64,000 bases of DNA from Octopus sinensis (lineage: Eukaryota), in the NCBI RefSeq assembly GCF_006345805.1, contig NC_043007.1, positions 17,422,001-17,486,000 on the forward strand. Reading direction: 5' to 3'. Both the position numbers and the translations under genes were made by a program. Within the stretch, counting starts at the first letter, position 1; every line of letters starts with the position of its first letter. This document shows, piece after piece, positions 7,215-62,684 of this stretch. The notes below the pieces were generated by a model, which saw only the letters and a program-made list of their open reading frames with translations, was not told the DNA's origin and did no database searches.

Positions 7215-7254
7215 CCTAAAATTTTCGTTGCATCTTGCAACCTTTTCAATAGTC
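7215..7254 (-). ncRNA. Candidate minimal hammerhead ribozyme, U3-A8 variant
   Basis: Minus strand: cta TTGAAAA g GTTGC-aagat-GCAAC GAAA at T T tag. Stem I is only 3 bp. Confidence 0.45.
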
Positions 7255-8153
7255 AAGACTACTGAAATGCTTCAACACACGAACTCATATAAAGAATCTT
7301 GCATACCAAATCCAAAAACGAAATATTTAGAATTATTTTCTTTCAAATGAAGATCTGCAAGTATATAATTAATGATTTACATTTACTTATTCACCCAGAT
7401 ATTATGTTTATGATATCAATGTGTGGTACTGATCTCAGACAATATCTATCTACTCTCGACGCTTTTTTAAAATCATGTTGGATCCTTGGGTAAAGAACTT
7501 GAACGAAATATTTACGAGACTTCTCTGAATTGTTGTTCCACGTAGAGTGTGAATCAGTGCTCTACGATCAATAAGAACGAACTCATAAGTACCTAGTGTC
7601 GATAAGACCTCATCTCCACTTAAATCATTAACTGGACTAGTTTCCAATGCATGTCAACAAATGTGATTCGGTGCAGAAGTTGACTCGTCAAAAGAGAGTG
7701 TAGGTAGATATGAAGAAGATTCATGGCAAAATTTTCGCCACAGCTCCCCAGTGAAACAAATGCTTATCTATACAAGATTGCATTATTCTTGTTTGAAATA
7801 TTTTTGTTTTTTCTTAGTTATGTCTTCAGTTGAGATTTCTGATAAGTGGACAAAGCGGCAGCTTATTTTTCTTGAATGGCTCTTAAAAAGCATTTAATTT
7901 TTGCAAATCCCTTTTTTTCTGGAAGTTATATTGTTCTTGCCCCTTGACTCTAAAATATGGATAGAATAAACCAGATACATCACCACACACTTATTACCTA
8001 GTGTTACCAGGTGTGCACAAGTTTGCCTAAAAAATGTTCTACGCTCAAAATGACATTCAACGGATCCGTTAAATGACTCTAAAAACAGTGTTGAGAAACA
8101 TTTCTTTCTTCATGATGGTAAAACTCTTCAACATCATCTATCTCTATCAATTA

Positions 8154-8545
8154 CTAGCAGTATCGCCCGGCGTTGCTCGGGTTTGTTTCGACCCTTTAGA
8201 ATTGGAATTTTTGAAAAGTAAAGATTTTGCATTATGTAGCTTGTTATTCTCTTTAAGTTAAACATTTTTCTGGTTGAAATACACCGAAAAATGGCGACAC
8301 ACCAGTCAAAAAATCGTAAAGAATAGGGATTTTCATAGAAAAAAGCACCTTTTTGATGTAAATAATTTGTGGTGTTAACATGGTCCGATTTGAATTTTTT
8401 CTTCTATGGAATGAAGAGCAAGCCTTCTTCAATCATAGTCTCGATTTTGGTCAACTTGTGCCGCAGGGTCTCGGAGGAGATAGCATTAGCTGAAGGCTAC
8501 CAAACCTGCCATACACAGACAACTTCAGCTCAATATAGAGAGAGA
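8154..8545 (-). mobile_element. Non-autonomous Helitron, copy 2
   Basis: Colinear with 5222-5609; same TC and CTAG termini and A|T target. Confidence 0.8.
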
Positions 8546-8826
8546 TTTCTGTAAGTTGCTCTACAGTATAGCTGATCACGGGAACAGAATCAGCGTTCTA
8601 GGACTGAAAGATTTTCAGTGATACCAATCACACCACCTATTCCTTCTGCTTTCATTAAATGCAGTTAACCTTCGTCTTCTTTTAAGTTTTGGCTGCTTGA
8701 AGTCTTTGCTGGTTTGGAAGTGTAGTCTTTATCATTCGCGTATAGGTTTTTTTTCATACATCATCTTGTCTTACACTTGGATACATCGTCATTGGTTGTT
8801 ACTCGGGTGTTTGGATCCTTCAATCA

Positions 8827-9618
8827 TCAAATACCCTTACCTACGCCACCCAACCAGAGTTGATCAAATCCCAGCTTATGTCCGGTTAAGCAATACCACG
8901 TTCTGCCCTCCACCATTACCCTTAGTTTCCTATTACCCACCACAATGGTACCTGTGATAGCATTTAGGTCTCCTGGGGTAGCCTGGATGACCATTTCCAG
9001 ACCTTGCTCCAGCCATTTCCTTTCAAGTATTCTCACGGCATGGAGGATTGTTACCTTCTCCTCCAGGCCCAATACAATTGTCACCGCTAACCAGGCAACA
9101 TCCACCTCTGGAGGTATCTCTTCTACCCTCACCTTGGATGCCCGTCTTCCAAAGTAGGAGAGTAGGAGGATGATATTGTCCGAAGACAATGAGGCCACGG
9201 AGTGTTGCCTGGTCTTTTCCTCTGATGAGAACCTCACTTCCACTGTGGAATATTTGGCAACCCTGATCAGGTAAGTTATTTCCGGCCAGATGGATGCCAA
9301 ACACTTCTCGATTTCTTTTCTCTCCGCAATCTCTACCTATTTCTCTCTCTTTAAAAATGATTTGAATACCACTGTTTTTCTCTCTGTTTCTTTCGTTACT
9401 TCACTGGGAGGAGTCAGTACCACCTCGTACTCCTCCCTTTTCATTAGGTCCTTGTACATCTTAAACTCCTACATATAAAAATTCCTTCCTTCCTTCTTAA
9501 CTCCGGTCACGCCTGCAAAACTTTTACCACTTTTCAAATCGGTTTCCCCTCTTCTCCTCGCCAGCTCCTTCTCTATATTGATTAAGCATCTCTCCAACTC
9601 TTCCTCCGACAAGGCCAT
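8827..9618 (-). pseudogene. Decayed ORF1 (RRM plus zinc-knuckle remnant) of an L1/Tx1-like non-LTR retrotransposon; element about 8550-9750
   Basis: ATG at 9618 (MALSEEELERCLINIEKELARRRG) is in frame with track ORF 8827-9300 across two stops. Contains KVRVEEIPPEV and MVEGRTWYCLTGH (broken CCHC). Confidence 0.6.
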
Positions 9619-9753
9619 GTCGGACGTACTGATATTATCTTATTGCATTTTAAAGGTTAAACAACGCTTCCCCCTTCAAACAAGGGGGACGGTGACAACA
9701 GTCCCGCTCGCGCGGGAAAAACAGTGTGTTTTTTAAAAACACGACAGTTTATT

Positions 9754-10157
9754 GGCGTAGGAGTGGCTGTGTGGTAAGTAGCTTGCTTACCAACCACATG
9801 GTTCCGGGTTCAGTCCCATTGCCTGGCACCTTGGTCAAGTGTCTTCTGCTATAGCCTCAGGCTGACCAAAGCTTTGTCAGTGGATTTGGTAGACGGAAAC
9901 TGAAAAGAAGCCCGTCGTATATATGTATATATATATGTATGTGTGTCTGTGTTTGTCCCCCCACCAACATCGCTTGACAACCGATGCTGGTGTGTTTACG
10001 TCCCCGTCACTTAGCGGTTCGGCAACAGAGACCGATAGAATAAGTACAAGGCTTACAAAGAATAAGTCCTGGGGTCGATTTGCTCGACTAAAGGCGGTGC
10101 TCTAGCATGGCCACAGTCAAATGACAGAAACAAGTAAAAGAGTAAAGAGTAAGAGAG
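9754..10157 (+). mobile_element. SINE A, full length
   Basis: A box TGGCTGTGTGG, B box GGTTCAGTCCC, internal (TA/TG)n tract, tail GGCGGTGCTCTAGCATGGCCACAGTCAAATGAC then (GTAAAAGA)n. Confidence 0.9.
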
Positions 10158-10189
10158 TTCAACAATATAACGCACTTAAAACAACAAGC

Positions 10190-10571
10190 GTGGAGGCGCA
10201 ATGGCCCAGTGGTTAGGGCAGCGGACTCGCGATCGTAGGATCGCGGTTTCGATTCCCAGACCAGGCGTTGTGAGTGTTTATTGAGCGAAAACACCTAAAG
10301 CTTCACAAGCCTCCTGCAGGGGGTGGTGGTGAACCCTGCTGTACTCTTTCACCACAACTTTCTCTCACTCTTACTTCCTGTTTCTGTTGTACCTGTATTT
10401 CAAAGGGCCAGCCTTGTCACACTCTGTGTCACGCTGAATCTCCTCGAGAACTACGTTAAGGGCACACGTGTCTGTGGAGAGCTCAGCCACTTGCACGTTA
10501 ATTCCACGAGCAAGCTGTTCCGCTGATCGTATCAGCTGGGACCCTCATCGTCGTAACCGACGGAGTGCTCC
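10190..10571 (+). mobile_element. SINE D, full length (tRNA-derived)
   Basis: TGGCCCAGTGG A box, GTTTCGATTCC B box; 13-bp TSD TAAAACAACAAGC at 10177-10189 and 10572-10584. Confidence 0.9.
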
Positions 10572-10695
10572 TAAAACAACAAGCAGCTTAATAACTTTTC
10601 TGAAACACCGCGTCCAACTCAAAAAGTGAGGAGAACAAATCTCAGGTAGTTCACAATCTCCACATTTCGTGCAACATTCCAGATGATTGTAATAA

Positions 10696-11309
10696 TCTTT
10701 TCTAGTCAAGCCACAAGGCCCGAAATTTTTAGAGAGGGACTCAGCCGATTGGATCGATCCCAGTACGCAACTGGTACTTAATTTATCGACCCCGAAAGGA
10801 TGAAAGGTAAAGTCGACCCCAGCGGAATTTGAACTCAGAACGTAAAGACAGACGAAATACCTATTTCTTTACTACCCACAAGGGGCTAAACACAGAGGAG
10901 ACAAACAAGGACAGACAAACGGATTAAGTCGATTACATCGACTCCAGTGCGTAACTGGTACTTAATTTATCGACCCCGAAAGGATGAAAGGCAAAGTTGA
11001 CCTCGGCGGAATTTGAACTCAGAACGTAAAGACAGACGAAATACAGCTACGCATTTCGCCCGTTTCTTATTTCTTTATTGCTCACAAGGGGCTAAACATA
11101 GAGGGGACAAACAAGAACAAAAACAAACGGATTAAGTCGATTACATCGACCTCAGTGCGTAACTGGTACCTGGTACTTAATTTATCGACCCCGATAGGAT
11201 GAAAGGCAAAGTCGACCTCGGCGGGATTTGAACTCAGAACGTAGCGGCAGACGAAATACAGCTACGCATTTCGCCCGGCATGCTAACGATTCTGCCAGCC
11301 CGCCGCCTT
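10696..11309 (-). mobile_element. SINE B trimer-like array; the last unit has an alternative tail
   Basis: Three body units; full head at 11309, partial second head near 11040-11062, standard junction near 10854-10870. Confidence 0.85.
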
Positions 11310-13357
11310 AGATGAGTGTATCGACGATGGAAAAAAAATATCGATGTTAATTTATTGAAACATTTGAGCCAGTCTCTGTCTGTATAATCAGACAATTGCA
11401 AAAAATTGTTTAAAAATATTCAAAACTCTGCAAAAATCCGGTACAAGTTCTTCATGGTTCTAAACGTTGCTTACTTTTTACTCAATCTGATAGACCCCCC
11501 TAATCGAATTTAACAAGTAAATTAAACACTCAGTAATGATGTTTTAAATCCTGTACTTTGCTATGAGTTTCTACTTTGTCAGATGAATAAATTGTAATTT
11601 GTTTTTGACAACACAAACGTACTGTACTTTTAGAGAGGCAGAACTTCCTTTTATTGCGGAAATTAAATGTATCCACAAAAATTTATTACCGTCAGCTGCG
11701 GAAAGCAGTTTTATATAACAAACTATATTTTGTTGAGGAATGTTATGTTTGAAACAATTTTTTGTTGAGACTTGTCAAGTTTATTGAGACAACATGACTT
11801 GCAGAAAATACCAATTTTAATATTTTCGTTTTTTGGTAAATATTTAATATCGTTACTTGAACAACCACGAAATTTAATTTCAGAGCTAAAGGGTTGTGAC
11901 ATCCATTCTTTTCTCCAATTTTCGGCGTAAGTGCAATAACGGAAAGAAACAGCCTTAAGCGAGGATTGAAACCTGTTTGCAAAGGGTCTTGCAGAAAACC
12001 AACTTGCTATTGTTGTTTACCCCCAGGTCAACTATGATGAAGTAGACCTACAGGCCTTGATTATACCTGAGTATATTGATCAGTGTATCCTTCTTATTTT
12101 AAGATGGTAGGAGATGATTCGAGGGAATTTGGTTGCTGTTTATGGAGTATCGAGCGACAGAACATAGGATTGCCCTGTTGGTTCACAAAAGCTTACCTTA
12201 CCCTCTACGCTGTGAGGAAAATGCGGATCTGTATGTGGGGCGCAGCTAAGTCGTTCGTCTCTGCCCGTAATACCGTAATACTGTTGGGGTTACATAACAA
12301 CGACCACCACAACAAAAATATCAATATAAATATTTCTCATATTGTCACAAGACCACTCATATATTACAGACGGGCGCGATACAGCAGAGTGAATCGTCCT
12401 TAGTGCATAACTATATTTTATCGAACTTTGAGTGGGTTTATAAGGCAAATACAACCGCGGTGAAATTTGAAGCCACAACATATTTTGTAACCTAACATTG
12501 ACATGAAGCATTTAAAACTATCCCATGTATTCGACCACTCGATTAACCCACTTCCCAATTATTTCTGTTCATTATTAGATATGTCATTAAAAAGAAAAAA
12601 AAGATGTGTCTGTCATCAATTGAGATTTTTCGATATGAAGATTGTGAGCTGGTTGTTGTTCATTTATTTTATGGTAATATTAGCAAGATTTGAATTGTTG
12701 TAATGCAAAATTATCGAACACAATATAATAGGTATTGCCTGTTCTTCCTATACGATCGGTGAGTGAACGAACTGTCACTAGGTACCGTGGTACGTTAACG
12801 GTAAAGCGGAAACAGTGGCAGGTTCCAGTTCTTTGGAATCGCTTCGTTATTTACGATGTTAAAACATAAATATCACATCAACTCATTTTTCCATCTCTTC
12901 TTAGCATGGCCTAGTGCAGACAGAAGATGAAAATAACACTGAAAAAACCCAGCGTGATTATAAATAAGATAAATAAATAAAAACACAGTCTTGATATAAA
13001 CAAAACACGGCTGATGGATAATATAATGCATGCTTTGCTATTTTTACATGAAAAAAAATTGTGCAAAAAAGGTGTCATGTGTGTGCGTGTGCGCGCCTTA
13101 AGGCTAAGTGATGAACAATTTCACGTAAACACAGACCTCTTCTCATTTATATATATATATATATATAATACTAAGCAATAAGGGTTTAGCAACGAATTGC
13201 CTTACCACATACCGAATTTAGAAATAGCAGTCAAAGGGTTATAGCTATTTCTTCTACTAAAAAGGGAGATCTCATATATATATATATATCGTTGCTGAAA
13301 ATTATTAGCAATTTTTAAGATTATGTCAGCAAATATACACTGTGTTCACACGCATTA

Positions 13358-13390
13358 CAGATAGACAGATAGATAGACAGACAGACAGAC

Positions 13391-13425
<35 letters not shown>

Positions 13426-13428
13426 GAC

Positions 13429-13459
<31 letters not shown>

Positions 13460-13492
13460 TAGAGAGAGAGAGAGAGAGAGACTGAGACAGAC

Positions 13493-13531
<39 letters not shown>

Positions 13532-13544
13532 CAGATAGACAGAT

Positions 13545-13617
<73 letters not shown>

Positions 13618-13662
13618 CAGATAGAGAGAGAGAGACAGACAGATAGATAGATAGACAGACAA

Positions 13663-13704
<42 letters not shown>
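13358..13704. repeat. Compound (GATA)/(GACA)/(GA) microsatellite
   Basis: Directly visible; source of the YLSI ORFs. Confidence 0.97.
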
Positions 13705-13705
<1 letters not shown>

Positions 13706-14035
13706 CAATGTGTTCACGAGTTGAGAGAATTGTATGAAAGAAAGAAGAAAGCAAAACGAATAAAAGCAGCAGAATATATATATATTTCAGGTTCCCTTTC
13801 TTGCAGTTTCTAATAATACATAACTAACAACAGTGGTAATAATGATAAATAACAGGTCTATCGGCAGAAGGGTGGGTGCCAGAGGAGGGGTGGCAAATAC
13901 TCACGAGTGATGTTAACAGTACACTCGGGTTTATTTATCTATTTATTCAGTTCTTTTGTCTCTGAACCTTGAATCTATTTAGCCGACTTTCGCGATGTGT
14001 ACCTGTTGATAAACATCGGCTATGCTATAGCTCAG

Positions 14036-14111
14036 TATTATTTATCATTATTACTATTATTATTATTATTATTATTAGATAGAGAGAGAGAGAGGGCAGT
14101 GCATGCCATCA

Positions 14112-14188
<77 letters not shown>

Positions 14189-14189
14189 A

Positions 14190-14226
<37 letters not shown>

Positions 14227-14412
14227 GATAGAGAGAGAGAGAGGGCAGTGCATGCCATCAATTATTATTATTATTATTATTAATCATTATTATTATTATT
14301 ATTATTAGTAGTAGTAGTAGTAGTAGTAGTAGTAGCAGTAGTAGCAGCAGTAGTAGTAGTAGTAGTAGTAGTAGTTAGTAGTAGTGGTTAGTAGTGGTGG
14401 TAGTGGTGGTGA
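14036..14412. repeat. (ATT)n then (AGT)n/(GGT)n microsatellite with two short embedded inserts
   Basis: Directly visible. Confidence 0.95.
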
Positions 14413-15307
14413 TGGTATGTGAGAGGTGGGTGTGGCTTACATGTCTAGTTAACATATGTAGCAGTGTTGTGTTGGCGGCGGCGGCGGAGCTGGTACTAGC
14501 AGGACATTGTAATCTTTTTTCGACTACTGCCACACCAACACACATTACATTTTACCTCACTTGCTTCTCATCACAACATTTTGTATATCTATATTTATTT
14601 GTGTTCCTACAGAAGAAGAAGAAGAAGAAGAAGAAAGCGATAGATATATATCTACATATATGTGTGATTTCTATACATTTTTAAGTCGAAGACATTACCA
14701 TCTTCTATATTTTTGAGATCGCTGTTAAAGTAAGCGAAGCCTCGCCACAGACGAAACTCAAGCACGTAAATACACCAGAAAAAATATCAGTGGAAGCATT
14801 TTTTACATGAAAGAAGGGAAAATAGTCAACAAAGATAGCAGTCGATTTCTTCCCCTCCCCCCACAATTTTTTTTCAATCTTCCTTTTTTCTTAAAGCACG
14901 TGGATTGTCATACTAATTGGTTTGTGTGTATTCATTGATTTTACCCTCTACGTCACACCTGTTATTTATTTACCTTAATTCATTCTCGCATTTTATATCT
15001 CTAAATGGTGTGAGAGAAAATTGTTAATTAGAAGATAAAGAGAGAACATTATATTTATGGTTGTATTAATTGGTTTTTCGCTATTGAGTCAACAATCGGA
15101 GTTACAGGTGGATTACATGCACAGGATTTGATCTCCTTTCACCTGTTTTTGTTGTAATTAGCTGGGAAGACGACAGTAAAACACGCATTTTAACAAAAAA
15201 TATTTTCAGTCTTTTTTTGCCATTTCGAGTTCGCTGCTGACTTTTCTTTGTGCTGAAATCTAATAACCATTCAATGCATTGCTTAACTTGACCCTTCATA
15301 TTTTATA

Positions 15308-15895
15308 ATGTGGCATAAAATCTGGGATACGGCTGTAGGTTTCCACAAAAGATACATTAGGCCTGTTTGGAATCGCGCACCGTATTCGAAACTGAAAGAA
15401 ATCTGTGATGAAAGTGAAGTAGAGATGTCAACAACAGGCGTTTACTGTGCTAGTGTTACCGATACCTCTATCTCCAACGAACCCCCAAATGTTAACAGGA
15501 TTGAAAACAAAACACCTAATTCCTCTGTTTCCGCGATGTCCATGAGACAAGGGTTTGATGAACCTGATGCTGGCTTTCATCGTTCGGACTTTCCGATAGC
15601 ATATCCATCTTCCATCACCCCCACAAAGAATTCTACAATTACGGATATTAAAAATGCACTCTCTGCAAAGAGACCGTCTTACCATCATGTTCAAGAAGAA
15701 GCAGATAAAATCGAAGTGCTAGGTCAAGTCGGTTACCAAAGTGTAAACTTAGAATGTACAGCAACTTCCGAACATAAAGGAAGCTCCGACCATATCAAGC
15801 AATGCCAGACATCTCCAGATGTCGAAGTCCCAATCGAAGAAATTACTCCGTCTTCCGCCAAAATCGATAAGAAATTGAAGTCGCGTCGAAAAAGG
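15308..15895 (+). CDS. Probable first coding exon (196 codons) of an unidentified host gene; Ser/Thr/Pro/Glu-rich, likely disordered N-terminus ending in basic KKLKSRRKR
   Basis: Longest non-repeat ORF in the window; ATG with A at -3; balanced composition that switches abruptly to T-rich sequence at AGG|GTATTT (15896, phase 0); about 900 bp of TE-free sequence upstream. Confidence 0.75.
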
Positions 15896-16300
15896 GTATT
15901 TTTCTTTTATTTCTTTATACATTCATTATCAATTATTATTGCTGGCGTTTTACTTTTCTTCCTGAAGTTATTTAATCAAATAGCCCGGCATTTTTTTTAT
16001 AGATATTTATACCTATGAATTCCTATACACACACCATCTCGCGCGCGCGTATGTATGTATGTATGTATGTATGTGTGTGTTTTATATGCTATAAGCACCA
16101 ACCAGAGATAAAAAGCAGCAAATAACGGACCCAGTGAGATGCCTATTGCTTGCTTGGGTTCGAATTCCGTCAGTCAGCTATTTATCCGTTTTCTGTCTCA
16201 AATTGGCGCTTATTATGACTAATATCTTGGATAGAATAAAATCGATGTCGAACATTTTAGCTCTCACACACACATACATACATATATATATGTATATATA

Positions 16301-16432
16301 TGTGTTTATTTCTGTGTTCCTTTCTGTCGAAGAGCGTAGGCTCGAAACATAAAGATTCCCTCACTTCCCGAGCGTTAAACTAATACATCTGTTTACTGTT
16401 TACACACCCGTCTTTTATTTTTTTGTAAATTC

Positions 16433-16440
<8 letters not shown>
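16301..16440 (+). mobile_element. Short Penelope-like terminal fragment with hammerhead-like motif (family H2), between TA tracts
   Basis: CTTT CTGTCGA A GAGC-gtag-GCTC GAAA CATAAAG at 16320-16354; homologous to 36208-36420. Confidence 0.6.
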
Positions 16441-16482
<42 letters not shown>

Positions 16483-18625: not shown

Positions 18626-18658
<33 letters not shown>

Positions 18659-18659
<1 letters not shown>

Positions 18660-18822
18660 GTGTAGGAGTGGCTGTGTGGTAAGTAGCTTGCTTACCAACC
18701 ACATGGTTCCAGGTTCAGTCCCACTGTGTGGCACCTTGGGCAAGTGTCTTCCACTATAGCCTCGGGCCGACCAAAGCTTTGTGAGTGGATTTGGTAGGCA
18801 GAAACTGAAAGAAGCCTGTCAC

Positions 18823-18862
<40 letters not shown>

Positions 18863-19070
18863 ATATGTTTGTGTGTCTGTGTCTGTCCTTCCCAACATCG
18901 CTTGACAACCGATGCTGGTGTGTTTACGTCCTCGTAACTTAGCAGTTCGGCAAAAGAGACCAATAGAATAAGTACTAGGCCTACAAAGAATAAGTCCTGG
19001 TGTCGATTTCCTCGACTAAAAGCAGTGCTCCAGCATGGCCACAGTCAAATGACTGAAACAAGTAAAAGAG
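18659..19070 (+). mobile_element. SINE A
   Basis: Colinear with 9754-10157. Confidence 0.9.
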
Positions 19071-19510
19071 TATATATAGGCTGTGGTTTTTCTCCCAGGT
19101 AGATGAAATTTTGCATACAGGTGTGTCTTTTGAAGGAAAAGGTCCATGCACTGTGTGACTTTTATGATATTTCCTAAAAAATTAATATTTTTATAGCAAT
19201 TTATCCAACAGATAGCAAATTCATGTGATTGTATTTATTTGGTATTAACAAACACGAACATGGCTGTGCATTTCTACTAATTAATATCAGTTGCATAGCT
19301 ATAAATTTATAATGTTAAAACTTTATTATTTTTCTCAGTACACACACACTCCATCAACAGGTTCCTCTCTTCCTAATTTGCCCAAAGGGATGGAAATAAA
19401 GTTATTCACTATTGCTTTATATCTTCATTTGACCTGCTACAAACAGCAACTAAATTTCTCTCAAATCTTTCCCTACCGTCTTAAGAAAGAAAGATTTACT
19501 GTCTGAAATA

Positions 19511-20681: not shown

Positions 20682-20720
<39 letters not shown>

Positions 20721-32070: not shown

Positions 32071-32424
32071 TGTATGCATGTGGGCGTAAATAATATTCAT
32101 ATATGTATGTGTGTATATGTGCATGTGCGTGTAAATACATATGCATGTGTGAGTATATGTGTGTGTGTGTAAATAAATAGGTACATATATGTATGTTTGT
32201 GTGTGTATGTGTGTGCATGTATATATATGTCTGTGTATAATATACATTGAAGCACAGAAGTGCATATATGCATAATGAAATGATTTCAGAGATGTACTTG
32301 CATAGCAAGTGACCTGATCTGAGATCATGTGCTGGAACGAAAACAATTGCAGCATGGAAGGTGTTTATAAGCCATTTAAGAGGCACACAAAACACAATAG
32401 ATTCACTTCAACATTTAAATTTAA

Positions 32425-32475
32425 TTTGTCAAAATATTTTTGTCACTTTGAGACTGCGACCTGTTCGCTGACAAA
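32425..32475 (-). ncRNA. Candidate minimal hammerhead ribozyme, G3-C8 variant (decayed copy)
   Basis: Minus strand: TTTGTCA GCGAACA g GTCGC-agtctcaaa-GTGAC aAAA atat T T TGACAAA. Stem I 7 bp, stem II 5 bp, palindromic AATATT stem III. Confidence 0.55.
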
Positions 32476-32656
32476 ATTCCGTGCTGCATCTGAGAAAGTA
32501 ACAGTTAGTTCATGATATATATGTACGTATGTATGTGTGTATATATATATATGCATGTATGTACGAAATGATTTCATGTTATGATATTTTATAATTCTGT
32601 GATAATTTGCATTTATTTCCTACATATTTTATAATATGCAATATATTATTGATATA

Positions 32657-34095: not shown

Positions 34096-34345
34096 CCAGT
34101 ACGTTCAACTTTAGAAATGAGTTGTGATGTTCCTGGTGCCAAGCTGTATCAACCTTTGCCTTTCTCTTGGATAACACTGGTGGTGTGGAGAGGGGAGGCT
34201 GGTATGCATGGGCAACTGCTGGTCTTCTATAAACAACCTTGCCTGGACTTGTGCCTAGGAGGGGAACTTTCTAGGTGCAATCCCATGGTTGTTCATGACC
34301 AAAGGGGTCATTTTTTTAACCATATATATATATATATATATATAT

Positions 34346-34537
34346 TGGTAAAAATGGTAAGATAACGAAAGAAAGAAAGAAACCTCAATATTATGTAAAT
34401 AGAGGAATTTATCTGTAAAATAATATGTGACAATTATTTGGTAGCCAAGATGGCCAGATAACCGAAGAGATGGTGGTGTGGATTTCCACCTTGGCATCCG
34501 AAACTCAGAGTTTTATCTTGGCTACCGAATAATTGTT
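34346..34537 (+). mobile_element. Fold-back fragment with hammerhead-like motif (family H3), between TA tracts
   Basis: Inverted repeat 34430-34451 / 34515-34536; AGATAA CCGAAGA GATG...CATC c GAAA CTC a GAG T T TTATCT at 34456-34518. Confidence 0.5.
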
Positions 34538-34547
34538 TATATATATA

Positions 34548-34828
34548 ATGGGAAGGTTTACGAAAATAAACAAAAGACGAAGGCAGGTGGAGTACAAACA
34601 AACAAATGTATTAGTATAGCGCTCAGGAATAGAAACAGAAAAAGTCTTTTACGTTTCGAGCCTACGCTCTTTGACAGAAAGATACACAGAAAAAAACAAG
34701 GAGAGAAACAAGGAGAGAAAAAAATGCATGTAGGAGCTAACGATCTATCATGGCGTCCTGACTTCGGACAGTGGTCAGACGCGAGAAGGACAGTAGGGGA
34801 GATAACAAGGTCAAGTGACTTCCAAAAC

Positions 34829-36209: not shown

Positions 36210-36420
36210 CCATGTTGAATCGCTAGCTTCTGCATGCATTTTTTTCTCTCCTTGTTTCTCTCCGTGTTTCTTTTCTGTGTATCTTTCTGTTGAAGAGCGT
36301 AGGCTCGAAACGTAAAAGACTTGTTTTATTTATATTCCTGAGCGCCATACTAATACAATTGTTTGTTTGTACTCCACCTGCCTTCGTCTTTTGTTTATTT
36401 TCATAAAGCTTCCCATTATA
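36208..36420 (+). mobile_element. Penelope-like terminal fragment, family H2, with a short inverted partner at about 36442-36485
   Basis: TCTTT CTGTTGA A GAGC-gtag-GCTC GAAA CG T A AAAGA at 36282-36319; flanked by (TA)n. Confidence 0.62.
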
Positions 36421-46636: not shown

Positions 46637-46749
46637 AGGGATTGTTGTTCAGCCCAGTAGCTATTTGCAATATCAATGAACATATTATTCACTGTTTACT
46701 GTATCAAAAGCAGCAAATTTTGTCTAAGTATGTGGCTGCAAGTACACAT

Positions 46750-53638: not shown

Positions 53639-54021
53639 GTGGAGGCACAATGGCCCAGTGATTAGGGCAGCGGACTCGCGGTCTTAGGATCGCGGTTTCG
53701 ATTCCCAGACTGGACGTTGTGAGTATTTATTGAGCGAAAATACCTAAAGCTCCACGAGGCTCCGGCAGGGGATGGTGGTGATCCCTGCTGTACTCTTTCA
53801 CCACAACTTTCTCTCACTCTTTCTTCCTGTTTCTGTTGTACCTGTATTTCAAAGGGCCAGCTTTGTCACACTCTGTGTCACGCTGAATCTCCCCGAGAAC
53901 TACGTTAAGGGTACTCGTGTCTGTGGAGTGCTCAGCCACTTGCACATTAATTTCACGAGCAGGCTGTTCCGTTGGTCAGATCAACTGGAACCCTCGTCGT
54001 CGTAACCGAAGGAGTGCTTCC
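53639..54021 (+). mobile_element. SINE D
   Basis: 14-bp TSD AATCACCACTAATT at 53625-53638 and 54022-54035. Confidence 0.92.
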
Positions 54022-54473
54022 AATCACCACTAATTAGCTTTAATTTTAGCATTAAATGGATGCTAGGTAAAAACAGTCATGTATGGCTAAACTTTCCATA
54101 TATGCAATACCCCTGCCTTCAGTTGATTTGAACTCAAGACCTTTGACCTGATGCTCCAATACTTTAGCCAAACAGTTACTTTGCATCTATAAACATCACT
54201 CTCACATAAGTGTCATATCTCTAGAGTTTTGTTTTCTTGATTTAATGACGTATGATTTAAGGAGTGTTTATACTATAATATTATCAACAAATTCTTAAAT
54301 GGACTGTAAAGAGGATTGTAAAATACATCTTTTATTTATGGCTACTTAAAGCTGAAAAGATAGAGTCACCAATGTCTTTCTCCTGTTATCAACACACACA
54401 CAAACTAGCTTGCTCACTCACACACATATAATCTATATGAACCAACGAGTGAGATTGTATATAATCATTTACT

Positions 54474-54865
54474 GTGGAGGCGCAATGGCCCAGTGGTTAG
54501 GGCAGCGGACTCGCGGTCATAGGATCGCGGTTTTGATTCCCAGACCTGGCATTGTGAGTGTTTATTGAGCAAAAACACCTAAAGCTCCACGAGGCTCTGG
54601 CAGGGGATGGTGGTGATCCCTGCTGTACTCTTTCACCACAGCTTTCTCTCACTCTTACTTCCTGTTTCTGTTGTACCTGTATTTCAAGGGGCCGGCCTTG
54701 TCACTCTCTGTGTCACACTGAATCTCCCCGAGAACTACGTTAAGGGTACACGTGTCTGTGGAGTGCTCAGCCACTTACACGTTAATTTCACGAGCAGGCT
54801 GTTCTGTTGATTCGGATCAACCGGAACCCTCATCGTCGTAACCGACGGAGTGCTAGAAGAAGAAG
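54474..54865 (+). mobile_element. SINE D
   Basis: TSD CATTTACTGT at 54466-54475 and 54866-54875; (AGA)n tail. Confidence 0.92.
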
Positions 54866-55103
54866 CATTTACTGTTAGAAATAATAGTCAAATCTCTTTC
54901 AAATTATACTTTCCTATCATAAAAAAAAAAGAGATTTCCAAAGTTGAGAATAAGGCATGATGGTCATGGCTAGAATATCTTAATTTTATATTGCATTATG
55001 TTACAGGTTTTCAACAAATCAATTATTGTTTCTTAATTTTATATTGCATTAGTTACAGGTTTTCAACAAATCAATTATTGTTTCACTGCCTTTCCAATGG
55101 CAA

Positions 55104-55316
55104 CTCTTTACTCTTTACTCTTTTACTTGTTTTAGTCATTTGACTGCGGCCATGCTGGAGCACCGCCTTTAATCGAACAACTCGACCCCGGGACTTATTC
55201 TTTTGTAAGCCCAGTACTTATTCTATCGGCCTCTTTTGCCGAACCGCTAAGTAACGGGGACATAAACACACCAGCATCGGTTGTCAAGCAATGCTAGGGG
55301 GACAAACACACACACG

Positions 55317-55359
<43 letters not shown>

Positions 55360-55521
55360 GACGGGCTTCTTTCAGTTTCCGTCTACCAAATCCAATCACA
55401 AGGCTTTGGTCGGCCCGAGGCTATAGTAGAAGACACTTGCCCAAGGTGCCATGCAGTGGGACTGAACCCGGAACCATGTGGTTGGTAAACAAGCTACTTA
55501 CCACACAGCCACTCCTGCACC
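55104..55521 (-). mobile_element. SINE A, young copy
   Basis: Consensus match; absent from the paralogous arm near 56585. Confidence 0.92.
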
Positions 55522-55908
55522 TATTGACAATGGATTACCTTTACAACTTGGGTGGAACAAATATCACAAGAGGCATTACTCAGAAGTACTGGTTCATTGG
55601 TTTCCCACAAAAGACAGAGGAACATGCACACACACACATACACATAGACACACACACATACACACACACACACATGCATGCACGCACATGCGCACTCACA
55701 TCACCATTATCACCACAATTGGAGCAGATATAGCTATCTGTAAGTGCAAGCACCATGAGTCAGTGGCTGTTCCACTGCTTCTCCCTTGCCATTCTCCAGA
55801 GCAATGCCTTTTCCATTTTGTCTTCTGGGACCATGAGGTGGTGTGAATTACAGGAAATCAAGAGAATGTTAGAATTTTGTCGCTTGCTACACAAAAAAAT
55901 TAGCTTAA

Positions 55909-56127
55909 CCCTTTAGTATTTAAACCAGCCATATCCGGCCAAAATATTTAATCTGTTTTATGCTCAAACTGACCACATCCAGGCTCTCACACCTACCTTA
56001 CAATGTTATTCTACATTAAGTAATTACACCATCAAGATCTTGAAGATATGAGATAATGCATGATTAATTCAAATCAATGTGAATCAATAAGCATTATGTT
56101 TGATAGAATAATCTGAACACTAAAGGG
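55909..56127. mobile_element. piggyBac-type MITE
   Basis: TTAA|CCCTTTAGT ... ACTAAAGGG|TTAA. Confidence 0.82.
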
Positions 56128-56727
56128 TTAAACAATCCCTCCGATATTGTATCAACACTGGAGCATATCGCAATTCTCCAGGTAGTGAAATGCTATGATT
56201 TATGAAGTGAGACAAGGGAAATGAGCATGGAACAGCAGAGAAGGCAGGTGGAAATATGAATGATTCAGTGTATTACCTTGAGGATAGACTGGATAGTTGC
56301 ATTTATGTCTTTGATCATTGATCTGCTCAGTAAGGGATGACCTGAGAATAACAGATAACAACATTGACATCCAATGCAAAATAACCTGGTTACAGTCACA
56401 TCTCCATCGTCTTCACTTTGTTTCTTCTCCATCTGTTGGAGAAGAAACAAAGTGCGTGCGTGCATGCATGTATGTGTATGTGCACGCTCGTCTGTCTTTT
56501 GTGGGGAAACCAATGCACCAGTACTTCTGAGTAAAGCCTCTTGTGATATTTGTTCCACCCAAGTTATAAAGGTAATCCATTGTCAGTATTGCCATTGGAA
56601 ATGCAGTGAAACAATGATTGATTTGTTGAAAACCTGTAACTAATGACACATAATGCAATATAAAATTAAGATATTCTAGTCATGACCATTACTACTATTA
56701 CTACTACTGCGACATCTGTGCCTATTC

Positions 56728-56968
56728 TAATACCTATTTCTTTACTACCTACAAGGGGCTAAACACAGAGGGGACAAATAAGGACAGACAAACGGATCAA
56801 GTCGATTACATCGACCCCAGTGCGTAACTGGTACTCAATTTATCAACCCTGAAAGGATGAAAGGCAAAGTCAACCTCGGTGGAATTTGAACTCAGAACGT
56901 AACAACAGACGAAATACGGCTATGCATTTTGCCCGGTGTGCTAACGATTCTGCCAGCTCACCACCTTC
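56728..56968 (-). mobile_element. SINE B monomer
   Basis: Consensus match. Confidence 0.88.
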
Positions 56969-57342
56969 AAATACCACTATTACAGAGGCCTTTGTCCTTC
57001 ACAGCTAGCTGGTAGCATGGTACCTTCTCTCAGGTACTCCCATTGCTCTCATCTCTCCTCCTCTTTCTATTTATATTGTCTCCACTCCCACACTCTCTCC
57101 CGGGTTCCACACTGACTACTGTCCCCAGCCCTTTTTTTTTTCCAAAATGTAGCCCCTCTGGTATTCTCTCCTTCCATGTTTTTGCTGAAACCATCAACTT
57201 GAAACTGTTCAAGAAGAATATTAATCTCATCAATTTCATCAGTCAAGAATTGTCAAAGATTATAGCTACAGCCAGTTACTCCCAGTCAATATAATTTTTA
57301 AAAATTATCACCAAATTTTGTCAGGAGAAGGGGAATACAATT

Positions 57343-57845
57343 ATGATAATAATAATAATGAAATTATTGTATACAGTGCTCAGGTGCACCACAACTTGTC
57401 AAAAGTGCGTATAAAGCATATGCAGTAATGTACAAATGTCGGAAAGTAAACAGTGTATGAGTCAGATACATGCTTGCGTGTGCATGGAGGGAAGAAAATC
57501 AGGTGTAGTGTTGGCGAATCTCAGGAAGCATGGAATCTTTGAAGGATGCAGTGCTCCAACAACTAACAACTGATGCTGGCAATTTGTTCCATGCTTCAGC
57601 AGCTCTTAGCATGAAAAAATGTTTCCAAAAGTCATGGGAGCTGTGCTGTTGTCTGACTTTGCAAACATGTCCACGGGTGTTAGACAGGTGGAGTTTGAAA
57701 AGGTGCTCAGAGTTATTGTCAGTAAGATGGTTAATAATTTTATGGGTGTCTGCTAAGTCAGCTGCCAGACGTCAGAGTTTCAATGTATCCATGCCCAGGG
57801 AAGTAAGGCGTTCAGAATATGGCAAGTGCTTGATGGAGGGTATTT
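57343..57845 (-). mobile_element. 5'-truncated CR1 LINE
   Basis: Same family as 30816; flanked by a direct repeat of about 63 bp. Confidence 0.9.
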
Positions 57846-58212
57846 CTCCCAGTCAATATGATAAAAAAAATTATCACCAAATTTTGTCAGGAGAAGGGGA
57901 ATACAATTGATCAACCCAATCCTCAGAATTTTACAGGATACCCTTTCTAGTGTATTCTACAATCTCATCGACTTATCTGAAACCTGTAATTGCTAATAGT
58001 TGTTATTCTTATTGTTTGAATTATGTTGTTATTAACCAATTGTAAATTTTATTTTACTATCCATTTATAAACTCTCTCTCAACCAAATCTTATTCAATAT
58101 TCATCTACGTAACATATAATATATATTTATTTATTTAAAATTAAACTGATTTCAATGTTCTATCTCAAGTTTTATATCTTGTCTTTTTTATTTACTTATT
58201 TATATATATATA

Positions 58213-58346
58213 TATATTGTTGTATTTAGGAAGGGTCATTTTGCCAGTTTAGCCAATAAAAACACATGCACTACATATTTGGTGTTACTTTGCTTCAGTG
58301 TCATTGGCTAAACTGGCAAAATGACCATTCCGAAATACAACAATAT
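58213..58346. repeat. Fold-back (arms of about 44 bp) next to a TA tract
   Basis: ATATTGTTGTATTTAGGAAGGGTCATTTTGCCAGTTTAGCCAAT / ATTGGCTAAACTGGCAAAATGACCATTCCGAAATACAACAATAT. Confidence 0.85.
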
Positions 58347-59301
58347 CTGTTTCAACACACGATTTCACATAAAAAATCTTGCACAACAAATATATAAACG
58401 TAATATATATATATATACATATTCTAACAAACTTTTCTATAGAGAAGACATGAAAAAAAAATATATATATATCCTCCTCTATTCAACTATTTCTATATTT
58501 GTCAATAATTTAACTTCTGTTGTATTTGGTCATTTTTAGTGTTTTATTAGCTGACATCAGAGAAATGTTTCTGAACATCACCAGTACAGGTAAAAGAAGA
58601 CAAAAAATATCTTTTCTGTATGCATAAGCGTTTGCCTAATACATTGCACTGCAAGGAAATTGGTATTGCTGTACATCCAGCTTAGATGGAACTACATTGT
58701 TAATGATTAGTGTCTCACTAACAGCATCTTACAAATCGTTACTAAAACTGTATTTTTTTTTATTTTTCATGTTTTTTTCTCTTTTTTTTTCTTTGTAATT
58801 TGTTGCCTGACAATTTTGCGATTTAGTGCTTAGCTTTCAATGAGATGTTTAGAGTTCTGTTGCCATTATTGTTTGAAGAGGGAATTCAGACAAAGTTATA
58901 ACTAAACAATTTCATTGAATTCATTGCTTGTGAGGTTATTCTATTCAATTCTTTTTTATCTTCTTTCTTTTTAACAAAGATTCAAGTAACTAAAACCACA
59001 TCTTTCCTTTTGCTCTTCGGGCATACTTGCATTTTTAACTTCAACTGTTCTAATTCTCACTTTCTTATTAAATTTTTTCATTCTTTTCTGAAAACTTATC
59101 TTTTTAATAAGTTATGCTATTAGTCTTTTTCTTCAGCCCTGACTCATAGAAACTTTCAACAAGCTGTTATTATCTTCTTTGAACCATTAACCTCTTCAAA
59201 GTAATATCCCCTTATGTCATCCAACTTATTCCCAAATAACAGACATTCAACAAATGATAATATTTGTAGATTTACTTCTTCCAAAAAAATATTCTGTATT
59301 T

Positions 59302-59599
59302 ATTTATGTGCCCTTTTCAAGCCTAGCCAGGCTCATGGGCCTGGTTTCTGTGGTGTGTGCATTCCCCCCAACTGGACAGGACGCCAGTCCATTGCAGTGT
59401 TACTCAAGAAACAGGAAGAAAGAGTGAAAGTTGGGGCGAAAGAGTACAACAGGGGTTGCCACCACCCCCTGCCGGAGACTCATGGAGCTTTAGTTGTTTT
59501 CGCTTAATAAACACATGCAACGCCTGGTCTGGGAATCAAAACCACAATCCTCCGACCGCGAGTCCGCTGCCCCTAACCACTGGGCCATTGCGCCTCCAC
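59302..59599 (-). mobile_element. SINE with D-type head and E-type tail
   Basis: Head GTGGAGGCGCAATGGCCCAGTGG; tail CCCATGAGCCTGGCTAGGCTTGAAAAGGGCAC. Confidence 0.85.
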
Positions 59600-60189
59600 T
59601 TAGGTAAACATTACAGTATTATTTTAGATACACTGACTAACAGTATAATAAGCTGTAATAAAAGATTTCATGGAGCAACAGTACATATATGTTCGTGTAT
59701 GTGTGTTTCAAGAAAGATTTGATTATATGAAAAAAAGTCTTTAAAGAAAACCAGAATGACATGAATATTTTGGAAGGACATTTTCATTCCCTTCCAAAAG
59801 GTTCATATCCTTGTTTTGGGGGATTTTTTTTGTTATATAATAAATAATTTTTTATTTAAAAAGGACTTTCCTCAAATATTTTAACTACATCAAGAATTCT
59901 ATTCCCGAGTGGATTGCTTAAAAATTGTGGAGACCTTTTCCATCTGAAACCATCGGTTGCCTTGTTAATCCACAAATAAAGTATATTTATCCATCAATGC
60001 AGTGTTGAGCACTCATTGTCACTTGTTGATACTAGCATGTATGTACACATGTGTGTGTGTGTGACTTTAGAAAGAGAAAGTATGAAAAATAAACTGAATG
60101 GTGGTATTCTAAGTGAAACTCAAAACTCACCATTAGCATTCATACATCTAACTGTACACAAGAAATACATGTGTGTGTGTTTTGTTTGT

Positions 60190-60484
60190 TCCTTCTCGAG
60201 CCATGCCTGGCTCATAAGGGCCGGTTTCCCGGTTTCTTGGCGTATAGGTTCCCCACCTGGACAGGACGCCAGTCCATCACAGGTGAGCTGCAAGATGCAG
60301 GAGGAAAGAGCGAGAGAAAGTTGTGGCGAAAGAGTCAGCAGAAATTCGCCATTACCTTCTGCCAGAGCCGCATGGAGCTTAGGTGTTTCGCTCATAAACA
60401 CACACATTGTCTGGTCTGAGATTTGAACCCGCGATCCCTCGACCGCACATCCACTGCTCTAACCACTAGGCCATGTGCCTCCAC
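60190..60484 (-). mobile_element. tRNA-derived SINE related to D/E
   Basis: Head GTGGAGGCACATGGCCTAGTGG; tail CCGGGAAACCGGCCCTTATGAGCCAGGCATGGCTCGAG. Confidence 0.85.
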
Positions 60485-60518
<34 letters not shown>

Positions 60519-61231
60519 AATGACTAACATAAAATGTAATAAACACCAGTTAGAGATTTCAGTCAATATCTGATGATATCAATGTTACTGTGTAGTAAGA
60601 CTGTGCTGGCAGAATCATTACCGTATCAGGAAAAAATATTTAGCAGCATTTCTTCCAACTTTACATTCTGAGTTCAAATGCAGTTGACTTTGCTTCTCAT
60701 CTTTTCAGGGTTGATAAAATAAGTACCAGTTGAACAAGGGTTGGTATGATTGACTTATCCCCTCCCCCAAAATTACTGGCCTTGTGACAAAATTTGAAAC
60801 TAATGTCACGGTACAGTGAGTAACAGTATGCATAGTGAAAGATTTCCAGGTAGAGAGGCTCCGAAAGGGGTCTCAGGGAGTAGCATCCCTGCCTTCCTGA
60901 GCTAGTTTTCCGCCACATTTCTTAAAAATTGTGGTAGAGGCCTTGATCTCGAGACCACTTGTGCTAGAAACTGAAGTTGAGGGTAAGCAAGGGCATGCTC
61001 CCTGTAGAAAATCCAGCTCCAAAACAGCCTCATGGTAGCAAGGGAGAATGGGCACCAGCCAGCCCAAAGGTTGGGGTGGGCTGCACCAACCTACCTCTGT
61101 TGCTATGGCATTGAGGTAGATTCGGTCACCCCCATTAACGGGGACAAAACCCAGATTTAAAGCACTGGATGATAAAGATGATGACAGAAGTTGATATACT
61201 TTTGCAATGAACACTTACTACTACACACAAG

Positions 61232-61635
61232 ATCATCATCATCATCATTTAACGTCCGCTTTCCATGCTAGCATGGGTTGGACGATCTTGACTGAGGGCT
61301 GGCGAGCCAGATGGCTGCACCAGGCTCCAATCTGATCTGGCAGAGTTTCTACAGCTGGATGCCCTTCCTAATGCCAACCACTCCAAGAGTGTAGTGGATG
61401 CATTTTACGTGCCACTGGCATGGGGGCCAGTCAGGAAGTACTGGCAATGACCTCGCTCGAATCTTTTTACACGTGCTACTGGCACAGGTGCCAGTGAAGC
61501 GATGTTGGTAACAATCACGCTCGAATGGTGCCCTTTTACGTGCCACGGGTATGGAAGCTAGTTGGCTGCTCTGGCAACAATCATGCTCGGATGGTGCTCT
61601 TGGCACCCTACTAGCACAGGCATAAGTGCCAGTAA
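61232..61635 (-). mobile_element. SINE C
   Basis: (CAT)n plus reverse C tail and subrepeats. Confidence 0.85.
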
Positions 61636-62249
61636 GATATTATAAAGAAATGTAGAAACCCGAAATAGCTACAAGATATTCCAGTGAATTTTAGTTTTGG
61701 AATGAACACTAAGTGTGGGGACAGGCTGAAAAAGATCCAAAATAAATTTAGCGATTAACGTAATTCATATCATTAGACTGGTTGCATACTGCATGAATTA
61801 ACCTTCTATTTTTTCAATGACTTTTGTTTACAGATGATTGTAGACTTAATTAACGATATGTAGTTACTATACTAATGAAATAACAAAAGGTTATACAGTA
61901 ATTGATGTGAAATTGATAGTGATGCTTAAGGATAAGTAATTGATGAAATCCTATTTATTGGTAATTACTCTAATGGCACAATTAGTGTCATTTAGTTGAG
62001 AAGGTACATTTTGTTTTTGTTTTTAATCATTACAAGGCCTAGCAGACATTAATTGATTTTATTACTAAGAATAAGACAAAAGCCAAACTAGTATTTCTCA
62101 ACCATTTCTTTTATCTATGGACCCCTTTTGATTTCTATTTTAGTCAGGTGTACCCTCATAGCCATTCAACATTATAGTTTTATTATTAAATATTATTAGG
62201 GACTGTTTTAAAGAAATTAAAATATTTTGAGTATTGTAGAAGTATAACC

Positions 62250-62684
62250 GATTTGACGATATTTGTCCTCATCTTGATTCAGCTGATATACCCTCCAGCC
62301 TTCATCAGGTGTCTTGGGGAAATTTCGAACCTGGGTTCTCATTCCTAAGGTATTTTTCGATGTTATTATTATTATTATTCAGGTCACTGCCTGGAATCAA
62401 ACTCGGAATCTTGGGGTTAGTAGCCTGCGCTCTTAACCACTACACCATATGGCATATGGCATAGTGGTTAAGAGTGCGGGTTACTAACCCCAAGATTCCA
62501 AGTTCGATTCCAGGCAGTAACCTGAATAATAATAATAACAATAATAATATAATATAAAAAAATACCTTAGGAATGAGAGCCCAGATTCGAAATTTCCCCA
62601 AGACACCTGATGAAGGCTGGAGGGTATATCAGCTGAAACATTGTGTTAACAACAAACAAGATAAGGACAAATATCCGTCAAATC
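62250..62684. mobile_element. Head-to-head palindrome of a tRNA-headed short element carrying a hammerhead motif (family H1)
   Basis: Arms 62250-62451 and 62453-62684 with a 1-nt spacer; A box TGGCATAGTGG, B box AGTTCGATTCC, (AAT)n linker. Confidence 0.85.
62602..62647 (+). ncRNA. Minimal type-I hammerhead ribozyme motif
   Basis: GACAC CTGATGA a GGCTG-gagggtatat-CAGCT GAAA ca T T GTGTT: canonical core; stem I GACAC/GTGTT; 5-bp stem II. Confidence 0.68.

Follow-up and report, generated by a model that had tools for sequence, protein, structure and literature searches.

Hammerhead Motifs in the Window

The window, a stretch of 64,000 nucleotides of the Octopus sinensis genome, carries seven motifs with a minimal type I hammerhead layout, each at the 3' end of a truncated repeat copy (Table 1). 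All seven cores begin at the coordinates and on the strands given in a preliminary description of the sequence, and the shared layout that it proposed holds, with the qualifications given below. The motifs represent five repeat families, A to E. Three of the seven copies are intact relative to their families, namely those with cores at 7249 (family D, though its stem I has only 3 bp), 34462 (C), and 36287 (B), and four are decayed: stem III reads ACAT in the copies at 62607 (A) and 16324 (B), the copy at 34677 (B) has A at position 8, and the copy at 32468 (E) has C4 and A12, where the other 29 copies have U4 (29 of 29) and mostly G12 (23 of 29). The core GCGAACA, read earlier from this one copy, thus gives way to a family core of GUGAACA. 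Likewise, the extra purine said to usually precede stem II does not extend to family C, where the additional nucleotide is a C close to the 3' end. Family A is represented by an eighth motif, which had been overlooked.

Table 1. Hammerhead motifs and associated features in the window
Feature	Position	Strand	Core and state	Predicted cut	Repeat
Family D minimal hammerhead	7216..7252	-	UUGAAAA, U3-A8	after 7219	about 7123-7330
Family B copy	16320..16354	+	CUGUCGA (U6); stem III decayed, stem I shortened		about 16302-16478
Family E copy	32425..32475	-	family core GUGAACA, G3-C8	after 32432	about 32283-32563
Family C hammerhead	34456..34518	+	CCGAAGA (C4); long stem II; 9-nt palindromic stem III	after 34512	about 34322-34547, with inverted arm
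Family B copy	34645..34682	-	decayed core CUGUCAA; A at position 8 breaks 3-8 pair		about 34538 to at least 34756
Family B intact copy	36282..36319	+	CUGUUGA (U6)	after 36314	short, flanked by (TA)n runs
Family A copy	62603..62646	+	canonical CUGAUGA; stem III decayed	after 62642	about 62251-62713, with inverted arm
Second family A motif copy	62275..62318	-	inverted, incomplete (without stem III)		
tRNA-like head upstream of family A hammerhead	62458..62511	+	presumed box A/box B-like		

The tRNA-like head contains two elements that we take to be box A and box B, and both were found in 12 of 30 family A loci. ARAGORN, run at a lowered threshold, called a tRNA-Ser in one of three family A loci; no tRNA was called within the 64-kb window. 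Of the 105 matches that an Rfam scan of the window gave at E values up to 5, none was to a hammerhead family; nearly all were to microsatellite-driven miRNA families, and all fell below gathering scores. In four contig-level sequencing runs, which are silent on expression and cutting, no variant reached 5% at any of the seven core positions, whereas loop II varied.

Family Cores and Genome-Wide Abundance

The majority cores of the families are CUGA(U/A)GA (A), CUGUYGA (B), CCGAAGA (C), UUGAAAA (D), and GUGAACA (E). Only family A has the canonical CUGANGA...GAAA...UH; family B is distinguished by U6, C by C4, D by U3-A8, and E by G3-C8. Exact-pattern searches of the whole genome returned 6043 (A), 7637 (B), 3058 (C), 1777 (D), and 5058 (E) matches, and the reversed-pattern controls returned 0 for each family. 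The expectation that a canonical search would miss such variants is borne out for four of the five families. By majority core, these four account for about 17,500 of the 23,573 matches, so that both hammerhead censuses and claims of Penelope clades without hammerheads may undercount.

All five families pass the descriptor at the majority level (50/81, 51/74, 47/70, 38/57, and 42/57 copies). A short palindromic stem III and G10.1-C11.1 are present in the families, the palindrome being imperfect in the C9 sister lineage described below. Complementarity of positions 3 and 8 is retained at the family level, as had been proposed: the Watson-Crick pair is found in 96/100 (B) and 95/100 (D) of the matches listed, and each position is kept in 62/64 copies of family E. 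The wider claim of covarying cores stands for swaps of this pair and fails for C4 in family C and U6 in family B, which are single changes without covariation. U6 is fixed in family B (100/100 among the matches listed) without a compensating change, and a related family retains A6. Among 100 family C matches listed, 84 read CCGAAGA and 8 the canonical CTGAAGA. In family E, departures from consensus amount to 1.6% in the core, 4.0% in the 3' flank, and 24% in loop II, which is weak evidence of core constraint because the copies were chosen by motif.

Chance Matches and Density

Within the window, a strict descriptor gave two matches against a shuffle mean of 0.175 (maximum one in 40 shuffles), and three against 0.30 (maximum two in 40 shuffles) when A12 was allowed; most of the seven motifs therefore fail it. 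In an evenly spaced genome sample of 0.92 Mb, used for density and pairing, matches with positions 3 and 8 paired numbered 40 versus 8.2 in shuffled sequence, and unpaired matches 25 versus 20.3. A3-U8 matches also exceed the shuffled count (7 versus 2.6), but no convincing family was found behind them, and part of the excess of paired matches is therefore noise. Positions 3 and 8 are paired in 8 of 11 newly found families (p=0.003, with family-level criteria set post hoc). Avoidance of pairing between positions 17 and 3 found no support: two families combine U3 with A17, and there are too few cases with G3. Over 919,800 evenly sampled bases we found 32 matches, or about 2.2 per 64 kb and about 95,000 genome-wide, well short of the 7-8 per 64 kb and about 340,000 implied by extrapolation from the window.

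It is extremely improbable, and largely refuted, that the pattern was simply picked out of decayed repeats by chance. The decay of four of the seven window copies would agree with such an origin, as would the 28.5 matches per 0.92 Mb that the loose descriptor finds in shuffled sequence and the single chance match seen in each of several large repeat families; however, the layout fits the family majorities better than the window copies, its position agrees with that of published Penelope hammerheads, and sister lineages show compensatory changes.

Association with Penelope-Like Elements

The earlier reading of the motifs as Penelope-type minimal hammerheads is supported. Families C, D, and E lie downstream of Penelope-like GIY-YIG ORFs; for families A and B no linked reverse transcriptase (RT) or GIY-YIG ORF was found in about 2 Mb, where only short copies were sampled. 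Family E is linked to a 1042-codon RT plus GIY-YIG frame, in which GIY-YIG scores above the cut-off and RT is recognized from motifs and a weak BLAST match (E=2e-6), the frame giving no match to a Pfam RT domain. In 14 of 19 loci picked by protein, the family E motif lies 861-1053 bases past the endonuclease end, with the core GUGAACA in all 14, and the endonucleases are 95-99% identical. The family D motif lies 618-728 bases downstream of the GIY-YIG ORF end in three of four cases. Families D and E were compared with the Neptune and Nematis clades, for which a CX2-5CxxC linker and a fingers domain free of insertions are expected; the linker is present, but E, aligned with two other elements, carries about 60 additional residues between RT motifs A and B.

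Family C motifs follow 13 of 14 Hydra-type endonuclease ends in loci picked by motif. The ORF, whose GIY-YIG match falls below the cut-off, encodes a CxCX5C linker and a terminal CxH (from translations of three loci, L330, L344, and L345, all C-terminal fragments), and insertion is at (TA)n sites, all features shared with the Hydra clade (Craig et al. 2021, PMC8557442). Hydra elements are described there with canonical hammerheads, whereas the dominant subfamily of C has C4.

Families D and E and a third lineage (L307) form one protein clade with support of 100/100 in a tree without named reference elements, and their stems are homologous, so that not all of the five families are unrelated, contrary to what had been supposed. 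A TTGACAA family was ruled out as the motif of the third lineage, whose ORF is followed by CUGAUGC, a C3-G8 core with C9. The 3-8 pair thus occurs in three Watson-Crick states (U3-A8, G3-C8, and C3-G8) within one lineage, with compensatory changes in stems I and II. Two older G3-C8 relatives (L278 and L135), with flanks 72-75% alike, have kept G3-C8 and changed the free position 7. Among metagenome relatives, one has a U3-A8 motif 106 bases past the ORF match and another has C3-G8; of 21 metagenome loci, many of them too short on the 3' side, two have a motif that passes the descriptor a short distance past the ORF and on its strand, and a third has a C9-type motif. These compensatory swaps of the 3-8 pair in sister lineages point to selection on the catalytic fold.

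Copy Structure and the Predicted Cut Site

All five families have fixed 3' ends, variable 5' truncation, inverted arms, an optional tail, and AT-rich or (TA)n sites; inverted arms are not evident in the family B loci shown. Copies are dispersed, singly or in inverted pairs, with none of the head-to-tail tandem units of non-LTR retrozymes. Most copies, in loci picked by motif, span the predicted cut (A 60/66, B 45/50, D 53/64, E 58/64). Within 3 bases of it, no 5' ends pile up in families B, D, and E, and A has one ambiguous case. In family C, fold-back of stem I and the choice of query confound the pile-up at the cut, and truncation totals for families C and F, swamped by (TA)n matches, were left out. 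Cofolding predicted a hammerhead-like dimer in one of the five families (C).

Proposed Role of the Motifs

What hammerheads do for Penelope-like elements is not obvious, since they cut poorly and insertion in vitro proceeds without them. The preliminary interpretation is partly supported, and we consider the motifs near the 3' ends to be probably slow, conditional hammerhead ribozymes in which the letters of the 3-8 pair vary but its pairing is maintained. Amplification from a few source elements probably produced each family. With reverse transcription probably starting some 70-150 bases downstream, most copies would carry the motif passively and then decay. Source elements would use the hammerhead to trim a tandem precursor RNA, either as a dimer joined through the palindromic stem III or aided by the element's protein. 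Rapid cutting at this position would sever the priming site from the ORF, so that selection may favour ribozymes that fold correctly but act weakly, and under such selection G3-C8, U3-A8, C4, C9, and perhaps U6 would be tolerated.

More tentatively, we propose that a natural G3-C8 hammerhead is used by an autonomous and recently active Penelope-like family that exceeds 5,000 copies. Together with the sister lineages, which carry U3-A8 and C3-G8/C9, it would display covariation of the catalytic tertiary pair through three states in a single retroelement clade. Selection would then maintain a ribozyme that works but is deliberately slow, and C4, U6, and C9 would be among the other cores tolerated. 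This young, ORF-bearing G3-C8 family is a natural test case.

A rather unlikely alternative is that the motifs descend from hammerheads but no longer cut in the variant families, the fold serving to bind protein or to direct packaging, or the changes having hitchhiked in successful source elements. Such loss is most likely for family B (U6), family C (C4), and the C9 lineage. It would accord with the lack of a truncation signal at the cut, with the sweep of C4 through one family C subfamily, with the report that insertion in vitro can do without the ribozyme and that no RNA-seq reads end at the cut site (PMC11167929), and with Naiad elements, described as thriving without canonical hammerheads (PMC8557442). 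Against it, selection on a catalytic fold predicts just what one clade shows, where both partners of the 3-8 pair are swapped and G5, A6, GAAA, and UH are kept; a change from U-A or C-G to G-C requires two transversions; and a viroid with natural U4C is still sufficiently active (cited in PMC3088659).

It is very doubtful that the variants are instead fully efficient, with tertiary contacts not seen here, a metal ion, or the protein of the element completing an altered active site. The carriers are young, high-copy families (family B copies are 96-99% identical, family E endonucleases 95-99%), and natural A6C has activity, though at a low rate (PMC3088659). However, genomic copies derive from uncut templates, the minimal Penelope hammerheads tested are slow and cut weakly, as dimers (PMC4209133), and C3G rescues G8C only partly (PMC11167929, PMC8495972).

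Comparison with Known Hammerheads

The closest counterparts are the minimal type I hammerheads of metazoan Penelope elements (Cervera and de la Pena 2014, PMC4209133), which share the layout, the extra nucleotide after position 9, G10.1-C11.1, the palindromic stem III, the position at the 3' end of the element, opposite-strand pairs, and many families per genome. U3-A8 is already published there, with about 1,300 matches in Schistosoma mansoni, and the core UUGAAAA of family D is listed. The rows of Figure S3 that were compared comprise CUGANGA, UUGANAA, and one UUGAAGA, without G3-C8, C4, U6, or C9; the descriptor of that study constrained the core, and the portion compared lists no cephalopod.

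In Poseidon PAc of the green anole (Frangieh et al. 2024, PMC11167929), the hammerhead likewise lies shortly upstream of the reverse-transcription start, with a 3' tail, AT-rich targets, and an uncut RNA as the main insertion template; its cleavage needs protein. The PAc core is canonical and G3-C8 was engineered as a rescue, whereas G3-C8 in family E is natural, and unlike in PAc the family E motif lies about 1 kb past the ORF behind a microsatellite-rich 3' region. We have found the G3-C8 core in print only as an engineered rescue.

Natural U3-A8 covariation, U4C (viroid), and A6C (phage) were described as rare single cases (Perreault et al. 2011, PMC3088659), whereas the families here number thousands of copies. 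G3-C8, A6U, and C9 are not named in the passages of its text that were compared. No natural G3-C8, U6 (A6U), or C9 core and no cephalopod hammerhead was found in the publications compared, which do not include the core variants of Lunse, Weinberg and Breaker (2017), among which G3-C8 may occur. Figures S6-S7 of Perreault et al. (2011) and file S2 of Craig et al. (2021) may also bear on the novelty of the cores. The Penelope-associated variants of Lunse, Weinberg and Breaker (2017, via PMC6765202, PMC7761336) resemble the present motifs in their short palindromic stem III and cleave as dimers.

Hammerhead Motifs in the Window

The window is repeat-rich animal DNA from an assembly of 2.72 Gb; its repeats and the best named protein match, Octopus vulgaris, suggest an octopus. 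All seven hammerhead cores reported in the preliminary description are present in the window sequence where they had been placed, and every motif is part of a dispersed repeat. A strict descriptor gave 2 matches, or 3 with A12 allowed (0.175 and 0.30, respectively, in 40 shuffles). The hammerhead feature is real, and the motifs are very probably descendants of Penelope-type hammerheads. An Rfam search of the window matched no hammerhead model, and no Penelope endonuclease remnant was found within it. Two other features of the window are an open stretch of 243 codons, a possible host exon with no Pfam match, and two highly abundant interspersed repeat families of approximately 10 copies each, in which the descriptor used identified no hammerhead.

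Abundance in the genome was estimated from 92 evenly spaced stretches (919,800 bases), in which BLAST with the five families gave 32 matches, 2 of them incomplete and 13 belonging to canonical family A. This density, 2.2 per 64 kb, corresponds to approximately 95,000 genome-wide. The window, with 8 family matches, exceeds the average density approximately 3.6-fold; the genome-wide count previously extrapolated from it was therefore too high.

Family Cores and Copy Numbers

Majority cores were derived by counting each alignment column across 29 further copies of every family; as these copies were chosen by similarity to the window copy, patterns with an open core were also run, and the cores of families B, C, and D were tallied by hand among the first 100 matches listed. 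For family B (7637 matches), U6 occurred in 100 of the 100 listed and C3-G8 in 96; for family C (3058 matches), 84 of those listed were CCGAAGA and 8 CTGAAGA; for family D (1777 matches), 95 of those listed were U3-A8. CUGAUGA or CUGAAGA predominates in family A (6043 matches). The 5058 matches of family E were obtained with a 20-mer spanning the core, which was therefore not left open. Reversed-pattern controls gave 0 matches, and the five-family total, 23,573, is a lower bound. The core first reported for family E came from a decayed window copy; the other copies have U4 in 29/29 and G12 in 23/29.

Features and cores of the hammerhead-bearing repeats, with two other features of the window (L-numbers denote sampled genome or metagenome loci; majority cores of families A to E are from 29-copy column counts)
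Feature	Location	Core or content
Family A	window 62251-62713; L121-L150	CUGAUGA
Family B		CUGUUGA
Family C		CCGAAGA
Family D		UUGAAAA
Family E		GUGAACA
C9 sister lineage of D and E	L307:3396 (-); L306:5059 (+), 3502 (-); L315:8661 (+); L038	CUGAUGC
Family D inverted junctions	L012-L030; window 7252-7262	
Family E protein	L301:4452-7577 (-)	C-terminal GIY-YIG
Young Penelope-like family, frame	L310:1753-4092 (+)	780 codons
Young Penelope-like family, motif	L310:4663	UUGAUAA (U3-A8)
Metagenome relative	L355:2497	U3-A8/C9 type
Related motifs	L311:7521; L248:1952; L056:237	C3-G8; U3-G8; U3-A8
B-related family	L265:4410; L305:8093	A6, C4/U4 mixed
Further U3-A8 motifs	L206:9321; L307:7389; L108:675; L209:2991	U3-A8
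Head-to-tail units	L212:3550, 4113, 4680, 5243	canonical
Open stretch	window 15287-16015 (+)	243 codons
Abundant window repeats (including)	window 5832-6250; 9755-10157; 18660-19085	

Pairing of Positions 3 and 8

A relaxed descriptor, with positions 3 and 8 unconstrained, gave 65 matches in the even genome sample versus 28.5 in 8 local shuffles. Matches paired at 3-8 exceeded the shuffles (40 versus 8.2; C-G 17/0.5, U-A 11/3.6, G-C 5/1.5, A-U 7/2.6), and unpaired matches numbered 25 versus 20.3. Repeat copies are not independent, so all matches from 1.99 Mb were grouped into 125 clusters, 46 of them multi-copy and 16 passing criteria blind to positions 3 and 8. Under these criteria, which are post hoc, having been fixed after an earlier result, and leave out plausible families (including one with U-G), 13 of the 16 clusters were paired, as were 8 of 11 once the five families were removed (p = 0.003 against 0.29) and 9/9 clusters with at least 4 passing copies.

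In a midpoint-rooted protein tree of 38 rows (26 hand-picked out of 114 homologues, without named references), families D and E and the L307 lineage group at 100/100. Aligned in register, the three have stem II in common. Compensatory changes affect both stem I and stem II, and the 3-8 pairs of the three are U-A, G-C, and C-G, respectively, the last accompanied by C9 in 5/5 full copies. The families had been described as unrelated; this does not hold for D and E, whose kinship makes a stronger case for covariation. Older G3-C8 relatives keep the pair with position 7 altered; metagenome relatives include U3-A8 (L351), C3-G8 (L356), and one copy of a U3-A8/C9-type motif.

A young Penelope-like family carries a U3-A8 motif downstream of 20/21 endonuclease ends; because its protein is distant from those of D and E, U3-A8 likely arose more than once. 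Three related motifs (C3-G8, U3-G8, and U3-A8) possibly represent a stepwise route via a wobble pair. No ORF linked to the four further U3-A8 motifs was found.

Element Structure and Associated Proteins

In each of the five families the 3' end is fixed, approximately 70-150 bases beyond the predicted cut, and the 5' end varies; (TA)n flanks and inverted arms are frequent. Among 19 loci selected solely by protein, 14 have the family E motif approximately 0.9-1.05 kb downstream of the end of a GIY-YIG ORF, and the motif is G3-C8 in 14/14. Pfam identified no RT domain in this frame, which matches another element by BLAST (E = 2e-6). Family D lies downstream of an ORF related to that of E in 3/4 cases, and family C, in motif-picked loci, downstream of an ORF with a Hydra-type CxCX5C linker in 13/14. 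In the E protein, which has a C-terminal GIY-YIG domain, the stretch separating RT motifs A and B contains an insertion of approximately 60 residues, a feature that canonical C-terminal elements lack according to PMC8557442.

No ORF linked to family A or B was found. Family A, with a tRNA-like head in 12/30 loci, is likely non-autonomous. It combines this head with an (AAT)n run, a Penelope-type 3' end, and inverted arms, is likely a SINE-like element mobilised by a Penelope protein, and has a combination of parts for which a literature search found no report.

Inverted junctions recur approximately 5 bases upstream of the core in family D and within stem I in family C; these inversions may have been seeded by fold-back at the ribozyme.

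Predicted Activity

Motif position, fold potential, and paired 3-8 states are established here; genomic copies extend across the uncut site, a pattern biased by the choice of loci. No pile-up of 5' truncations at the predicted cut was found in B, D, or E. In family C, truncations do pile up, but at the self-complementary part of stem I, a site at which fold-back would give an identical pattern; cofolding predicted a hammerhead dimer for this family only. Weak cleavage, as dimers, is reported for minimal Penelope hammerheads (PMC4209133). The anole element requires protein for cleavage, C3G/G8C gives partial rescue, the main template is uncut RNA, and reverse transcription begins 3' of the ribozyme (PMC11167929).

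The G3-C8 and U3-A8 cores are probably active; activity of the U6 core is doubtful. C4, U6, and C9 lack a compensating partner and may be hitchhiking losses. Tandem precursors would be trimmed by slow, conditional cleavage in source elements, and the motif would be passive cargo in dispersed copies. Rapid cutting would separate the ORF from the priming site, so that weaker, fold-preserving cores would be tolerated; we hold this rationale for slow cutting tentatively, leaning slightly against it.

Comparison with Known Hammerheads

Minimal Penelope hammerheads, their high abundance, and U3-A8 are already published, including a UUGAAAA core identical to that of family D (PMC4209133), and U4C and A6C are known natural variants (PMC3088659). 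In the text available from PMC11167929, PMC3884650, and PMC8495972, G3-C8 appears only as an engineered variant. Parts of PMC8557442, PMC6765202, PMC7761336, and bioRxiv 10.64898/2026.07.22.740005 were also compared. No report of a natural G3-C8, A6U, or cephalopod hammerhead was found in the literature searched, outside which lie Lunse 2017 and Arkhipova 2017. New here are a natural G3-C8 core, high-copy and ORF-linked, and a single clade with three paired 3-8 states.

A B-related family that retains A6, with C4 and U4 mixed among 18 copies, provides a natural control for the U6 of family B. At a further locus, a canonical hammerhead is present in every one of four units of approximately 565 bases that lie head-to-tail in what looks like a non-LTR retrozyme array.
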